The translations under genes and the position numbers were made by a program. A model generated the notes under the pieces. It made no database searches, had not been told where the DNA came from, and saw nothing but the letters and a program-made list of their open reading frames with translations. This document shows positions 7,294 through 16,225 of a stretch of 64,000 bases of DNA, one piece after another (position 1 is the stretch's first letter; each line of letters begins with the position of its first letter). The DNA comes from Parcubacteria group bacterium (GTDB lineage: Bacteria; Patescibacteriota; Minisyncoccia; UBA6257; UBA11618). The DNA lies in assembly GCA_943357895.1 (NCBI GenBank), contig CALRGO010000001.1:140042-204041 (forward strand), given 5' to 3'.

Positions 7294-8307
7294 ATGGCAG
7301 TTAAGAAAAAAGCCCTTATATCGGGCGTTACCGGTCAAGACGGCTCATTCTTAGTCGAATTATTGCTCAAAAAAGGCTATGAGGTGCATGGCATAATTCG
7401 TCGTGCGTCCACTTTTAATACGAGTCGTATTGACCATATTTTTCAGGATCTGCATGCGGATAAAAAGACGTTTCATTTGCATTACGGCGACCTGTCAGAC
7501 GCGAATACCATTAGGAAGCTTATTCAAAAAATCGAGCCGGACGAGATTTATAATCTGGGGGCCCAGAGTCACGTGCGCGTGAGTTTCGATATCCCCGAAT
7601 ATACGGCAAACGTTACCGGTCTCGGCACGCTCCGCGTTTTGGAGGCTATTAAGGATTACGGCGAAAGCGGAGGTAAGAAAAAGATAAAGTTTTACCAAGC
7701 ATCGTCTTCGGAATTATTCGGCTCTACGCCGCCGCCACAAAATGAATTATCCCCGTTCCATCCGCGGAGCCCCTATGCGTGCGCCAAGGCATTCGCCTAT
7801 TATACGACCGTGAATTATCGCGAGGCATACGGAATTTTTGCCTGTAATGGTATTTTGTTTAATCACGAGAGTGAGCGCAGGGGGGAAACCTTCGTCACGA
7901 GGAAAATCACGCTTGGCGTGGCGCGGATTGCGGCGGGTTTAGATAAGAAACTCTACTTGGGTAATTTGGACGCCCGTCGTGACTGGGGCTACGCCCCCGA
8001 ATACATGGAAGCGGCGTGGCTGATGCTGCAGCAGGCGAAGCCAAGCGACTACGTGATAGGTACAGGTGAGAGTCATTCGGTAAAGGATTTCGTCGTCACG
8101 GCATTCGCGGCCGCGGGCATTGATAATTGGAAGAAGTATGTGGAGTTCGATAAGCGGTATCTGCGCCCCACGGAAGTGAACGATTTGGTTGCCGATACCC
8201 GCAAAGCGGCAAAGGTATTAAAATGGAAAGCAAAAACGAAATTCGCGGAACTCGTTAAAATAATGGTTGCGCACGACCTAAAAAAGCACGGGGTAGAAAA
8301 GCCATGA
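7294..8307 (+). CDS. gmd: GDP-mannose 4,6-dehydratase.
   Basis: Near-collinear match to E. coli Gmd: [78 protein letters not shown]. Confidence 0.95.
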
Positions 8308-9467
8308 TTAAGCTTGTTAAATCCAGTTTTTACGAAGAACAAAAAACAAAGCGCGCGCTTACGGCGTTTATAAACAACGCGGATATTTTTAGTATGGGTG
8401 CGCAGTGCGCGCAATTCGAGGTAGATTTTGCCCGTAAGCAAAAAAGGAAGTTTGCTGTTTTTGTTTCGAGTGGTAGCAGTGCCAACCTTGTGCTTATCCA
8501 AGCGCTTCTTAGTATGAAGCTTCTTGCAAAGGGCGACCGTGTCGGTTTCTCCGCTCTTACATGGGCTACAAACGTGATGCCGTTAATCCAGCTTGGGCTT
8601 ACGCCGATTGCAATTGATTGCGAGCTTGAAACCCTTAATGTCTCCCTACGGACGTTGAAGCAGTGCACACCACGTCCAAAAGCGGTCTTTCTTACAAATG
8701 TTTTAGGGTTTAGCGGCGATATTGAGGCTATTAGGGTGTGGTGTAAAAAAAATAATATCCTTCTTTTGGAAGATAATTGCGAGGCGCTTGGATCTAAAGC
8801 ATACGGAAAACTTTTGGGCAATTTTAGCATAGCTTCCACATTTTCTTTTTTCGTCGGGCATCATCTCTCTACTATCGAAGGGGGAATGGTGTGTACTGAT
8901 GACGAAGAGTTATACCACATGCTTGTGATGGCGCGTGCACACGGATGGGATAGAAATTTACCGGCAGCTGCGCAAAAAACTATTCGCGTAAAGCACAAAG
9001 TAGATACTTTTTTTTCTAAATACACTTTTTACCACTTAGGATATAACGCCCGCCCGACGGAAATTAGCGGCTTCCTCGGCGTTTCCCAATTAAAGCATTG
9101 GGATGAAATTGTGAAATGCCGCGCGCGCAATTTTAAGGCGTTTCACAAAGCTGTTTTAAAAAATCCCGATTTTATTCCATTAGACGTGGCGCATATAGAT
9201 ACGGTATCTAATTTTGCCATGCCTATAGTCGCTAAAAATAAAGCGGCATTCGATGCGTATCGTACGCGATTCGAAGATGCTCTCGTGGAAATTCGTCCTA
9301 TTATCGCGGGCGATATCACGCAGCATCCCTTTTACGCCGCGCATACCACAAAAGAAAGTGTGTGTAAGAACGCGGCATATATCCATCAGCATGGGTTTTA
9401 TTTCCCCAACAACCCCGAGCTGACGGAAAAGGAAGTTGCGTTCTTAACGTCGCTTCTTGCGCCGTAA
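8304..9467 (+). CDS. DegT/DnrJ/EryC1-family sugar-modifying enzyme of the 3-dehydratase type (ColD/E1-like), with histidine replacing the PLP lysine.
   Basis: Fold-type I sugar aminotransferase family. The active-site motif reads [14 protein letters not shown] where the family has SFxxxKxxxxxEGG. ATGA overlap with gmd. Confidence 0.75.
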
Positions 9468-9494
9468 AGCACAAAGTGCTTAATTTATACATCT

Positions 9495-13610: not shown

Positions 13611-14566
13611 AAGAATTATTAAAAGAGCGAACGGCGCGAATAAAAAAGATTTTCCCGAAACTTGAAAATGAGTCGCCTTTATACGGTGAAATTTCCCTAC
13701 CTGAGAATATAGCGGCAAATCTCGTCACTGCTTCAAAATTTGTCGTATACGACTGCCTCATCTCTTTTTACAAGGACGATACGTTTAATTTAGATCTACC
13801 TATCGAGGCGTTTTTTAAAACATATAAGGAAAAAATCATGAAGCTGCCCAATATTACTCCGAATGGGCTTCTTTTGCCGAAGATAGAAGTATTAAATTCT
13901 GTTAACTTTTTAAATAAGACTGTATTTCCCCTTATGGAATTTCTTAAGCTTAAAGGTCAGTGCGAAATTGCGTGTCCGGTCAATTTAAGGCTGAATTTTG
14001 GCGTAGACCGTAGCAGTGAGGCGAACGCACGCCCAAAGAGTTCAACCTTTTGGCATACTGATATTTGGGCGGGGCATAATGCTAATGAAATTATGATCCA
14101 TACGCCCATTTTCGGCGATTTTAAGAAGAATGGTATTGCGTCAGCTGTGCCCCCCGATGCTTTTTTCCCTGATTTCGTAAAGGCAATCCCGAGTTATGAG
14201 GGACTGCCGGTGACAGCAGGTCTTGATAAAGTCGCTCATCGGCCGGTAATGAAGGTTGGTCGGTCATATATTTTTGATTCGTTTCTTCTTCATAAGACGG
14301 TTTCTGAGGGGGAGGGCATACGTGGCATTATTAGTTTTTCTATAAAGCTTAAGCATAAGGTGAAGTCGGACATTTATATGAATCCTTTGCGTGACGCCGA
14401 ATACCAGAGTTATAGCGAGTGGGAGAAAATGGGTTCAGAAACCATGCTCGTTTCCACTAAAAAAATTGCGAAGGGAAAAGCGAAGAAGGGTAGGAAGAAG
14501 GGTAGCTTTATTACCTATGCAGATACCTTTAATAAGGTTTCCATGATCGATGACAATCGAAGTTAA
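13607..14566 (+). CDS. Hypothetical protein, possibly a PhyH-like Fe(II)/2-oxoglutarate dioxygenase.
   Basis: FWHTDIW (an HxD motif) with a distal His in FLLHKT. No other recognisable motif. Lys-rich C-terminal tail. Confidence 0.35.
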   Translation: MKELLKERTARIKKIFPKLENESPLYGEISLPENIAANLVTASKFVVYDCLISFYKDDTFNLDLPIEAFFKTYKEKIMKLPNITPNGLLLPKIEVLNSVNFLNKTVFPLMEFLKLKGQCEIACPVNLRLNFGVDRSSEANARPKSSTFWHTDIWAGHNANEIMIHTPIFGDFKKNGIASAVPPDAFFPDFVKAIPSYEGLPVTAGLDKVAHRPVMKVGRSYIFDSFLLHKTVSEGEGIRGIISFSIKLKHKVKSDIYMNPLRDAEYQSYSEWEKMGSETMLVSTKKIAKGKAKKGRKKGSFITYADTFNKVSMIDDNRS

Positions 14567-15056
14567 AAAAACAAAGTTAGCGGGAGTTCTTCTTATTACG
14601 CCGGATATCCATACTGACGTGCGAGGGTGTAATGTCACGCTCTATAGTAAGCGTATGTATGAGGAGCAGGGAATTAATTTAGAATTTGTTGAAAATAAGG
14701 TTTCTATTTCCAAGCGTAACGTCCTACGCGGTATACACGGCGATAACGATACGTGGAAATTAATATCATGCCTTTCAGGTACCGTCTTTCTTGCGGTGGT
14801 AAACTGCGACGAATCGTCGCCGGATTTTGGTACGTGGGAGTCGTTTACGCTTTCGGGCGACGACTTTAAGCAAGTGCTTGTGCCGCCAAAGTTTGGCAAT
14901 GGCCATTTAGTTATAAGTGATTCGGCGGTATTCCATTATCAGTGGTCGGCATATTATGATTTAAATAATCAATTTAGTTATAAATATAATGATCCGCGGT
15001 TTAATATAAATTGGCCCGTAAAGGATCCAATCGTCATAGGCCGCGATAAACCATAA
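14550..15056 (+). CDS. dTDP-4-dehydrorhamnose 3,5-epimerase (RmlC)-like cupin; an NDP-sugar 3- and/or 5-epimerase.
   Basis: 168 aa. RmlC-like LRGIHGD and ..KFGNGHLVISDSAVFHYQ.. cupin motifs. Confidence 0.7.
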   Translation: MTIEVKKTKLAGVLLITPDIHTDVRGCNVTLYSKRMYEEQGINLEFVENKVSISKRNVLRGIHGDNDTWKLISCLSGTVFLAVVNCDESSPDFGTWESFTLSGDDFKQVLVPPKFGNGHLVISDSAVFHYQWSAYYDLNNQFSYKYNDPRFNINWPVKDPIVIGRDKP

Positions 15057-16225
15057 TGATAAAATATTTTCTCGCTGAGGACACAATAGACAATAAAGAT
15101 ATCGATAAGCTTATTGAATGGCTAAGGACCTACCCGCGTCTTACAAAAGGTGCGCTTACTATTGAGTTTGAAAAGAAATGGAACGGCTGGCTCGGCACGA
15201 AGTATTCCGTCATGAATAATTCTGGTTCGTCGGCAAATCTTTTAATGTATGCGGCGCTCGACACCGTAGGTGGTTTGAAAAATAAGAAAGTAATTGTGCC
15301 GTCCGTTGGCTGGGTTACGACCGTTGCTCCTGCAATGCAGCTCGGCTTCGAGCCGATTATGTGCGAGGCAGATCCGGACACATTTGGTCTCGATCTCATC
15401 CACCTCGAAAAATTACTCATAGAGCATAATCCGGCAATTGTAATGCTCGTGCAGGTGCTGGGTGTGCCGCATAAGATGGACGAGATTATGGCATTAAAAG
15501 CTAAGTATGGTTTTGTGCTTTTAGAAGACGCGTGTGCTGCAATGGGTGCTTCGTACAAGGGCCGCAAGGTAGGCACCTTTGGAGATATGGCGAGCTTTTC
15601 AATGTACTTCGGGCACCAGATATCGACCATCGAGGGCGGCATTGTTTCCACGGACAATAAGGCATATGCGGATGCCCTGTTTATGTTGCGGAGTCATGGC
15701 TGGGGGAAAGACTTGGATACTGCGACGCATAACGCCTTAAAAGAAAAATATGGCATTGACGACTTTCACTCCCCATTCGTTTTTTACGAGGCTGGGTATA
15801 ACCTGCGCTCGACGGATTTGAACGCCTTTATCGGTATTGGGCAAATCGACAAGATGGAGTGGCTTATAAAGCGCCGGCAGGAAAACCACGCCCTCTACAC
15901 GGCCCGCTTGGGCGGCGCTTTGCGTGCACAAAAATATGACAAAGAAAGTACGGTGTGCAGTATTTCTTTCGGCGCCTTAGCAAGGGATGCCGAAGAGCGT
16001 AAAAAAATAGTCGCCGCACTCGTGGAAAATGGCGTCGAGACACGTATATTTTCTGCCGGTAATCTTGGGCTGCATCCTTTTTGGTATAACCGGTACGGAA
16101 AGTTTTCGGCACCCATGGCGGACCGTATTCACCACACAGGCTTCTTCTTACCTAACAACCCGTCTCTCACTACGGATGACATCGGCGCTATAGCGGACAT
16201 CGTCCTTAAGGCTATCGCCTCGTAG
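15056..16225 (+). CDS. Second DegT-family enzyme with His in place of the PLP Lys (3-dehydratase type).
   Basis: FSMYFGHQISTIEGG aligns with SFxxxKxxxxxEGG. Similar overall to 8304-9467. Confidence 0.75.
   Translation: MIKYFLAEDTIDNKDIDKLIEWLRTYPRLTKGALTIEFEKKWNGWLGTKYSVMNNSGSSANLLMYAALDTVGGLKNKKVIVPSVGWVTTVAPAMQLGFEPIMCEADPDTFGLDLIHLEKLLIEHNPAIVMLVQVLGVPHKMDEIMALKAKYGFVLLEDACAAMGASYKGRKVGTFGDMASFSMYFGHQISTIEGGIVSTDNKAYADALFMLRSHGWGKDLDTATHNALKEKYGIDDFHSPFVFYEAGYNLRSTDLNAFIGIGQIDKMEWLIKRRQENHALYTARLGGALRAQKYDKESTVCSISFGALARDAEERKKIVAALVENGVETRIFSAGNLGLHPFWYNRYGKFSAPMADRIHHTGFFLPNNPSLTTDDIGAIADIVLKAIAS

Follow-up and report, generated by a model that had tools for sequence, protein, structure and literature searches.

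The 64,000-nucleotide stretch of Parcubacteria group bacterium contig CALRGO010000001.1 analysed here (positions 140,042 to 204,041 of the forward strand; hereafter the window) encodes, between positions 7294 and 16225, two DegT-family proteins with a histidine in place of the family's pyridoxal phosphate-binding lysine, which raises the question of what the two proteins do and whether they serve one sugar pathway or two. An earlier note, made from the letters of this DNA alone, had read the interval as a colitose-like 3,6-dideoxyhexose pathway composed of gmd, the two DegT genes (here DegT#1 and DegT#2), an Fcl/ColC-like gene and a sugar C-methyltransferase (CMT). The coordinates and strands of these five genes were reproduced exactly, and four further genes that the note did not mention lie inside the interval, encoding a CgeB-like glycosyltransferase, a class I methyltransferase, a 319-aa protein and an RmlC-like epimerase. 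The reading that we favour, at a probability of roughly 0.6, is that two separate GDP-sugar tailoring modules cross the interval: Module A at 7294-11709, and Module B at 12780-17334 plus 18102-19046, probably continuing to ~27591. This reading is built on family membership, catalytic-residue patterns, the absence of the E1 cysteines and conserved neighbourhoods, from which we infer all functions given here, including GDP, read from gene context, as the nucleotide, the carbon that is methylated, the sequence of the reactions, the stereochemistry and the involvement of a thiamine diphosphate (ThDP) enzyme.

Both DegT proteins match PF01041 over their full length (DegT#1, E 3e-58, residues 14-379; DegT#2, E 4e-70, residues 12-383), a check that the earlier note had proposed, and both motifs quoted in that note are present verbatim, the second being FSMYFGHQISTIEGG. 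Aligned with HMMER to solved structures, the two proteins place His186 (DegT#1) and His187 (DegT#2) on the catalytic His of E1 and on His188 of ColD, the residue mutated in PDB entries 3b8x, 2r0t and 3gr9; a histidine thus occupies the Schiff-base lysine position, as the note had claimed. The ColD structure 2gms is the top PDB match for both proteins (E 4.7e-64 for DegT#1 and 3.6e-48 for DegT#2), and E1 comes next (E 1.4e-39 for DegT#2). When every DegT homologue was extracted from 160 related loci, the histidine proved invariant in DegT#1-type (81/81) and DegT#2-type (80/80) orthologues, whereas 24 more distant DegT paralogues of the same loci carry lysine, in motifs such as FSFYPGKNLGAYGEG. 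A simple neighbour-joining distance tree (p-distance/Kimura), whose supports are approximate as distances for some very distant pairs are undefined, separates His-type from Lys-type proteins in 88 of 100 bootstraps, sets ColD, DegT#1 and DegT#2 together apart from E1 in 86, and recovers the DegT#2 family as monophyletic in all 100. DegT#1 and DegT#2 are 31% identical to each other.

Replacement of the lysine by histidine defines the sugar 3-dehydratases, among which ColD lacks the [2Fe-2S] cluster of E1 and SpnQ (PMC8987622). The segments of DegT#1 and DegT#2 that align with the E1 cysteine cluster DCYCAPGCDNTC are free of cysteine, and neither an E3-like or ferredoxin-reductase-like gene nor a CDP-glucose 4,6-dehydratase gene was found in the window. 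Because the iron-sulfur cysteines of E1 are absent, the choice between ColD and E1 that the earlier note had left to such a cysteine check falls to ColD, and the evidence supports a predicted activity as ColD-type sugar 3-dehydratases, not aminotransferases, for both proteins.

Other DegT genes among the compared loci bear on these classes. In a Peribacteria MAG (metagenome-assembled genome; locus L037), an E1-like paralogue begins at 12681 beside a DegT#1-type gene; it carries the E1 motif FSFYPAHHITMGEG unchanged and clusters with E1 in 100/100 bootstraps. Locus L168 (4306-5544, minus strand) encodes a third His-type DegT subtype (FSTYIAHMMVTGVGG) beside a pair of CMT and Fcl-like genes. In RefSeq, the ColD of E. 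coli O55:H7 CB9615 (L171 10701-12787; NC_013941 2553701-2555787) is labelled 'DegT/DnrJ/EryC1/StrS family aminotransferase' and its ColC 'GDP-L-fucose synthase family protein'; as ColD itself is labelled an aminotransferase, database names cannot tell dehydratases from aminotransferases.

Module A and the glycosyltransferase gene that follows it comprise:

7294..8307, plus strand: GDP-mannose 4,6-dehydratase Gmd (TIGR01472, PF16363)
8304..9467, plus strand: DegT#1, predicted ColD-type, pyridoxamine phosphate (PMP)-dependent sugar 3-dehydratase with His186 (PF01041, ColD 2gms)
9495..10775, plus strand: CMT, Zn-ribbon S-adenosylmethionine (SAM)-dependent C-methyltransferase of the TylC3/MtmC/TcaB9 type (PF08421, PF13489 and PF08484)
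10762..11709, minus strand: Fcl/ColC-like GDP-4-keto-sugar epimerase/reductase (NF047922, GMER 1bsv)
11735..12772, plus strand: CgeB-like glycosyltransferase, copy a (PF13524 E 9e-30)

Gmd scores 510.8 bits against TIGR01472, above the equivalog cut-off of 415, matches PF16363 at E 3e-133 and is 55% identical to the Gmd of E. coli O55; its stop overlaps the start of DegT#1 by 4 nt. A database search returned thousands of DegT#1 homologues, and those at 50-65% identity are overwhelmingly from Patescibacteria MAGs (Parcubacteria, Saccharibacteria, Peregrinibacteria and WWE3, with the cultured Minisyncoccus archaeiphilus PMX.108 also a carrier, in which the gene belongs to a gmd-DegT#1-Fcl operon, locus L015) and in some cases from DPANN archaea, so that the rarity outside Gram-negative O-antigens asserted in the earlier note fails at the gene level. 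Across 80 species-representative loci, a gmd gene (≥45% identity) lies within 2.5 kb of the DegT#1-type gene in 58 and an Fcl-like gene (≥45% identity; orthologues 48-63% identical) in 27; both are that close in 26, usually in the order gmd-DegT-Fcl on one strand. This conserved synteny supports DegT#1 as part of a gmd-colD-colC-type (colitose-pattern) operon, of a kind met very often in Patescibacteria MAGs. A literature search for colitose in Patescibacteria returned nothing relevant.

The Fcl-like protein matches E. coli GMER (1bsv) at E 1.6e-92 and the GDP-fucose synthase equivalog NF047922 at 415 bits, below the cut-off of 500. It keeps the Ser, Tyr and Lys of the short-chain dehydrogenase/reductases (SDRs) and the epimerisation Cys (S112, Y140, K144 and C113, the last in the GMER Cys109 column). 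At the GMER His179 column it has Gly174, where the authentic ColC of E. coli O55 has Tyr; of the Fcl-like proteins encoded at DegT#1-type loci, 29 reach 45% identity or more, and these mostly have N, G or R there, with His in 2. Since it is nearer to Fcl than to ColC and falls below the Fcl equivalog cut-off, it is strictly neither.

What sets Module A apart from a plain gmd-colD-colC operon is the inserted CMT gene, which converges with the Fcl-like gene, the two 3′ ends sharing 14 nt. CMT has the zinc ribbon and DxGxNDG motif that the earlier note had read in it, namely PF08421 (42.6 bits, cut-off 31.3) with Cys9, 12, 53 and 62, and DIGSNDG from residue 115, followed by PF13489 and a C-terminal PF08484 (124.7 bits). 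Along its whole length it is homologous to sugar 3-C-methyltransferases (MtmC 4rv9, E 4e-49, residues 6-417; TcaB9 and KijD1, E ~1e-27). These three solved enzymes share with CMT the Zn ribbon, the Rossmann SAM domain and the C-terminal domain; they differ in acting on dTDP-2,6-dideoxy or 3-amino sugars of antibiotic pathways, whereas the predicted context of CMT is a GDP-linked 6-deoxy or 3,6-dideoxy sugar. None of the 80 species-representative DegT#1 loci has a CMT orthologue at 40% identity or more, and the insertion is limited to a small sub-lineage that includes the window. Accompanied by a His-type DegT gene and this Fcl-like gene, CMT recurs on at least five other contigs, including:

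L167: Wzy-gmd-DegT-CMT-Fcl(-)-glycosyltransferase, the exact window order, 82-93% identity to the window genes
L169: DegT-CMT-Fcl(-), 74-80% identity to the window genes
L163: CMT-Fcl(-) adjoining a His-type DegT, 49-70% identity to the window genes
L168: CMT-Fcl(-) adjoining the third-His-type DegT (FSTYIAHMMVTGVGG), CMT 79%, Fcl 84%
L164: CMT, DegT and Fcl all present, 58-68% identity to the window genes

From these families and their order, the product of Module A is predicted to be a C-methylated 3,6-dideoxyhexose. Gmd would supply GDP-4-keto-6-deoxy-D-mannose, on which DegT#1 would act as ColD does: a PMP ketimine would form at C-4, His186 would take the C4′ proton, the 3-hydroxyl would leave and the enamine would be hydrolysed, with PMP recharged from glutamate and with no need of an Fe-S cluster or reductase partner. 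Either before or after this step, CMT would methylate the carbon adjoining the 4-keto group, which is most likely C-3, although C-5 may be an alternative site. The Fcl/ColC-like SDR would reduce C-4, with or without epimerisation at C-5, and the resulting GDP-3,6-dideoxy-(3-C-methyl)hexose would be passed to the adjacent CgeB-like glycosyltransferase. A limited literature search turned up synthetic compounds and 2,6-dideoxy sugars of the mycarose type, but no 3,6-dideoxy-3-C-methyl sugar from nature.

The closest characterised counterpart of Module A is the GDP-L-colitose pathway of E. coli O55 and Yersinia pseudotuberculosis (Gmd, ColD and ColC), which uses the same three families with gmd directly upstream of the dehydratase, a dehydratase with His for the Schiff-base Lys and without an Fe-S motif, and a reductase without the GMER His179. 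Unlike that pathway, Module A has CMT between dehydratase and reductase and the reductase gene inverted, and its host is uncultured and probably a member of the Patescibacteria, judging by the taxonomy of the nearest homologues and by split transketolase genes, not a Gram-negative bacterium with O-antigen.

DegT#2 is no duplicate within the colitose-like pathway under which the earlier note had listed both proteins: it belongs to a deep family of its own, and the partners conserved with it differ from those of DegT#1. The genes of Module B and of its probable continuation, with the two NUDIX genes that lie among them, are:

12780..13610, plus strand: class I SAM methyltransferase, weak match (PF13649/PF13489 E ~1e-5, below cut-offs; start as in the gene call in L001)
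13607..14566, plus strand: 319-aa Fe(II)/2-oxoglutarate (2OG) oxygenase-like protein (invariant residues, AlphaFold2 (AF2) model, Foldseek)
14550..15056, plus strand: RmlC-like cupin sugar epimerase (PF00908 E 3e-43)
15056..16225, plus strand: DegT#2, second predicted ColD-type 3-dehydratase, with His187 (PF01041, ColD 2gms)
16231..17334, plus strand: CgeB-like glycosyltransferase, copy b (PF13524 E 3e-29)
17399-17983, minus strand: NUDIX protein, 191-194 aa
18102..19046, plus strand: extended SDR, named SDR314 (PF01370 E 2e-31)
19649..21190, plus strand: B12-binding radical SAM enzyme (PF02310 and PF04055; no NCBIfam equivalog)
21245-21820, plus strand: NUDIX protein, 191-194 aa
21851..23047, plus strand: class I/II (aspartate-type) aminotransferase (PF00155 E 2e-62)
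23073..24917, plus strand: YerE/JanthE-like ThDP-dependent carboligase (three ThDP domains)
24925..25923, plus strand: HddA-like GHMP sugar kinase (PF00288/PF08544)
26893..27591, plus strand: sugar-1-phosphate nucleotidylyltransferase, ManC/HddC type (PF00483)

Homologues of DegT#2 at 65-93% identity come from Patescibacteria (Wolfebacteria, Liptonbacteria), Elusimicrobia and 'Deltaproteobacteria' MAGs. In the 57 DegT#2 loci whose flanks reach 3 kb or more, the tightest conserved partner is an SDR314 orthologue (57-71% identity; 50/57), followed by the B12-radical SAM enzyme (34/57), the HddA-like kinase (33/57), the nucleotidyltransferase (25/57) and the class I/II aminotransferase (16/57). 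As these partners all lie downstream, at 18102-27591, the reported interval splits Module B and leaves most of its partners outside. A gmd gene adjoins the DegT#2 block only in the closest relatives (L083, L092, L100 and L158); the closest of all, L083, joins gmd (90%) directly to the block without DegT#1 or CMT and has a 74% identical copy of the class I methyltransferase. Overlaps of 4 nt between methyltransferase and oxygenase-like genes, 17 nt between oxygenase-like and epimerase genes and 1 nt between epimerase and DegT#2 genes suggest translational coupling from the methyltransferase to DegT#2. CgeB-like copy b also follows DegT#2 orthologues in L083, L085 and L087, while copy a also stands downstream of the Fcl-like gene in L167, L169 and L083.

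The epimerase scores 119 bits against TIGR01221, below the cut-off of 156, and is nearer to the C. jejuni GDP-heptose 3-/3,5-epimerases 8dcl, 8dak, 8dco and 7m14 (115-121 bits) than to dTDP-specific RmlC (≤93 bits); copies 62-64% identical stand directly upstream of DegT#2 orthologues in L085, L087 and L089. SDR314 is probably the C-4 ketoreductase. That it might be a hidden 4,6-dehydratase for Module B is unlikely, as its active-site strand reads TNSGYG with no Asp/Glu acid-base pair. The nucleotidylyltransferase falls below cut-off against NF052502 (121 bits) and NF049965 (89 bits, cut-off 300); its best matches are guanylyltransferases, and an orthologue in L135 has the same best matches. 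The HddA-like kinase reaches 139 bits against NF049969, cut-off 600. Over 24925-31514 and 19043-19627 (minus strand) the island encodes two HddA-like GHMP kinases, a GmhB-like HAD phosphatase, a ManC/HddC-like transferase and an RfaE-domain-II-like adenylyl/cytidylyltransferase, all far below equivalog cut-offs; together they may form an incomplete or non-canonical heptose-type activation set.

The 319-aa protein encoded two genes upstream of DegT#2 has no match in Pfam, in NCBIfam or among PDB sequences, and scanning 61 members of its family against Pfam gave none either. Its family is small, at ~297 clusters at 50% identity, and H150-x-D152, H229 and R239 are invariant in 61 homologues. An AF2 model (pLDDT 94.4) returned only 2OG oxygenases as top Foldseek matches, with probability 1.0 and TM-scores only 0.37-0.51; they include CurA Hal, PtlH, EvdO1, SnoN, SnoK, EctD and PhyH, of which EvdO1 and SnoN/SnoK modify sugars. 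Judged from these residues and the model, the protein appears to be Fe(II)/2OG oxygenase-like and to represent an undescribed family; its gene shares an operon with those of a sugar epimerase and of a 3-dehydratase.

Further downstream, a row on the plus strand within 19649-24917 encodes the B12-binding radical SAM enzyme, a NUDIX protein, the class I/II aminotransferase and the ThDP enzyme. The last matches JanthE (8rph) at 335 bits (E 7e-99) and 5ahk, a PpYerE structure, at 290 bits; acetolactate synthases reach at most 244 bits, and the acetohydroxyacid synthase equivalog TIGR00118 gives 395 against a cut-off of 538. JanthE is YerE-like and accepts ketones, and YerE-like enzymes put acyl branches on their natural acceptors, NDP-3,6-dideoxy-4-keto sugars. 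Given the likeness to JanthE and YerE, a link between DegT#2 and the ThDP gene, which lies 7 kb downstream, is plausible on the basis of partial co-occurrence. The 2-oxo-acid donor of the ThDP enzyme might come from the aminotransferase; the pair of genes also occurs near gmd-DegT#1-Fcl in L010, L012 and L014.

In Module B, epimerisation and reduction would fall to two distinct partners of DegT#2, the RmlC-like epimerase and an SDR, much as the GDP-3,6-dideoxyheptose route of Campylobacter divides them, and DegT#2 would take either the Gmd product or a GDP-heptose analogue as its substrate. The sugar may be tailored further by the 2OG-oxygenase-like protein and the methyltransferase, and its 4-keto-3,6-dideoxy intermediate may be the ketone acceptor of the YerE-like enzyme. 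The known route to such branched sugars, from CDP-3,6-dideoxyhexose by E1/E3 and YerE (yersiniose, erwiniose, caryophyllose), likewise has a His-type 3-dehydratase that yields a 4-keto-3,6-dideoxy sugar, and a YerE-like gene is near here too. The island differs in that its dehydratases lack the Fe-S cysteines, that E3 and CDP-glucose genes are absent, and that its transferases are guanylyltransferase-like. We know of no description of a ColD-type (Fe-S-independent) dehydratase feeding a YerE-type enzyme.

Several observations weigh against the two-module reading or some part of it. The compared loci were retrieved by pattern matching, a source of retrieval bias, and have at most 10 kb of flank each. 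Within the ColD-type group, DegT#1 joins ColD in 40, DegT#1 joins DegT#2 in 42 and DegT#2 joins ColD in 8 of 100 bootstraps, none of the three pairings reaching a majority. The two proteins are not close orthologues of ColD: against the authentic ColD recovered from E. coli O55:H7 CB9615, which with its neighbours served as reference for the ColD, ColC, Gmd and Fcl comparisons, DegT#1 is 35% and DegT#2 31-33% identical, while ColD and the heptose dehydratases of C. jejuni share 62-67% identity. The Fcl-like protein is 49% identical to E. coli Fcl and 39% to authentic ColC, and its nearness to Fcl makes 'colitose' no more than one possible stereochemistry; of the colitose-type route in the earlier note, what stands is the fit of DegT#1 to gmd-ColD-ColC by synteny. 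CMT orthologues (60-61%) occur without a dehydratase, with an SDR and gmd in L165 and with an SDR alone in L166. A gmd-like gene lies within 10 kb of DegT#2 in 14/57 loci, many of these genes at ~30% identity, and the ThDP enzyme (67-72% identical) accompanies DegT#2 in 9 of the 34 loci whose flanks extend over 9 kb or more. A GmhA/SIS isomerase gene was not found in the window.

Given these CMT orthologues without a dehydratase, CMT may belong to a parallel branch that starts from the Gmd product. In that case an unmethylated product would come from DegT#1 and the Fcl-like enzyme, namely a colitose-type GDP-3,6-dideoxyhexose, while CMT and an SDR would turn the Gmd product into a 6-deoxy-3-C-methylhexose of the virenose/evalose type. 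The island has several spare SDRs that could serve in this, and there is a precedent in the in silico proposal for GDP-virenose in Coxiella burnetii (Gmd, the TylC3-type C-3 methyltransferase CBU_0691 and GMER; PMC3539893), which like Module A puts a TylC3-family C-methyltransferase and an Fcl-family enzyme on a GDP-sugar made by Gmd. That proposal has no 3-dehydratase, however, whereas the CMT-Fcl pair adjoins a His-type DegT in every Patescibacteria-type contig examined (the window, L163, L164, L167, L168 and L169), the third subtype included. The window CMT moreover sits between DegT#1 and the Fcl-like gene, and the Module A block has only one Fcl-like gene. We consider two branches sharing the Gmd product a possible but lesser explanation, and prefer a serial route to GDP-3,6-dideoxy-3-C-methylhexose. 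For Module B, it is likewise possible, though less favoured, that DegT#2 works on a GDP-heptose: GDP-D-glycero-D-manno-heptose would be formed through an HddA-like kinase, a GmhB-like phosphatase and an HddC-like transferase, and a Gmd-type dehydratase, DegT#2, the epimerase and SDR314 would convert it to a GDP-3,6-dideoxyheptose, as in C. jejuni HS:5/HS:11. There, four enzymes suffice, namely a 4,6-dehydratase, a PLP (pyridoxal phosphate) C3-dehydratase, a C5-epimerase and a C4-reductase (PMC10440746), and Module B shares with them the ColD-type dehydratase, the separate RmlC-like cupin epimerase and the separate SDR. The best PDB matches of the epimerase are the C. jejuni enzymes, two HddA-like kinases, a GmhB-like HAD protein and an HddC/ManC-like transferase are in the island, and kinase and transferase are conserved with DegT#2. 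Against this, the pathway matches are far below NCBIfam cut-offs (139 and 160 against 600 bits; 89 against 300), no GmhA/SIS gene was found in the window, and the closest relatives of DegT#2 are joined to canonical gmd (L083, L092 and L100). Module B also adds the 2OG-oxygenase-like and methyltransferase genes, and its wider family the B12-radical SAM, aminotransferase and YerE-like genes, to what C. jejuni has.

Two further explanations deny that the DegT proteins are ColD-type dehydratases at all. One or both might be E1 (DdhC/RfbH)-type CDP-4-keto-6-deoxyglucose 3-dehydrases that work with [2Fe-2S] and E3, as in the abequose, paratose and yersiniose pathways. RfbH (NF011936) is indeed the top NCBIfam match of both, many homologues carry the JGI label 'CDP-6-deoxy-D-xylo-4-hexulose-3-dehydrase', and the YerE-like enzyme nearby belongs to a kind that uses the E1 product in known systems. 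The RfbH scores, however, are 208 and 201 bits, half of the cut-off of 423, and we rejected this explanation as very improbable on these scores, the missing cluster cysteines and the tree, in which both proteins group with ColD (86/100) and the true E1-like paralogue of L037 with E1 (100/100); the window, as said above, also has neither E3-like reductase nor CDP-glucose 4,6-dehydratase genes. Least probable of all is that the proteins are sugar aminotransferases of the ordinary kind, or relics without activity where His has simply taken the place of Lys. NCBI labels the homologues 'DegT/DnrJ/EryC1/StrS family aminotransferase', and SpnQ has a side aminotransferase activity, but authentic E. 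coli ColD bears the same annotation, and the histidine is invariant over 161 orthologues that are conserved along their full length. The Lys-type paralogues form a separate clade, and the conserved operon partners belong to deoxygenation routes; it was on the census and the clade split that this explanation, too, was rejected.

With both proteins read as ColD-type dehydratases in separate modules, we suggest, tentatively, that the island makes two undescribed sugars. One would be a 3-C-methyl-3,6-dideoxyhexose, produced by a ColD-type dehydratase and a GDP-sugar CMT acting on the same intermediate. The other would start from a GDP-3,6-dideoxy-4-keto sugar made without E1/E3 and be branched at C-4 by the YerE-like ThDP enzyme, with the aminotransferase giving the 2-oxo-acid donor and the B12-radical SAM enzyme and 2OG oxygenase tailoring the product.

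To our knowledge, the biochemistry of ColD-type 3-deoxygenation has been worked out in no more than a few Gram-negative pathogens, and Patescibacteria and DPANN archaea have no lipopolysaccharide and essentially unknown surface glycans. The enzyme chemistries at this locus are known and the gene combinations are not; what is new is that ColD-type operons are common in genomes of the candidate phyla radiation, that a CMT-bearing variant recurs, and that a second deep ColD-type family resides in an uncharacterised conserved cassette. The gmd-colD-colC-type operon thus emerges as a common feature of Patescibacteria, the cultured M. archaeiphilus included, and also of some DPANN archaea. Its CMT variant predicts a new sugar type, a 3,6-dideoxy-3-C-methylhexose, and the DegT#2 cassette, found in many uncultured lineages, could carry acyl-branched sugar biosynthesis beyond the CDP/E1 paradigm and yield new ThDP and 2OG biocatalysts. 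Should both undescribed sugars prove real, they would be the first concrete chemical handle on surface glycans of the candidate phyla radiation; should the island make only plain colitose and a known dideoxy sugar, the result would be an ordinary annotation.

The interval forms the left part of a glycan-assembly island of ~32 kb (5065-36818), whose left edge is the following gene:

5065..7266, plus strand: Wzy_C (O-antigen ligase/polymerase-like) membrane protein with C-terminal TPR (PF04932 E 1e-20, and TPR)

The same gene stands upstream of gmd in the identical operon of L167. At its right end, at 36818, the island has a Bac_transf initiating transferase and two Wzx-like flippases. The two NUDIX proteins inside the island may hydrolyse GDP-sugars, by analogy with the GDP-mannose mannosyl hydrolase encoded beside gmd in E. 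coli O55. Housekeeping genes (GAPDH, a split transketolase, S4, RpoA, MurA and MreB) lie in the right half of the window, and no structured RNA was matched when the entire window was scanned against Rfam. Eight successive same-strand open reading frames of 288-541 aa at 47244-56895 (plus strand) have no Pfam match, and a 938-aa protein at 39399-42215 (plus strand) has a pair of Lamin-tail domains as its sole recognisable feature. At 1776-4982 (plus strand), a 1068-aa protein with one peptidoglycan-binding domain is encoded in a stretch of 57% GC, against 43-50% nearby, and the 680-aa open reading frame antisense to it at 1818-3860 is probably a by-product of composition.

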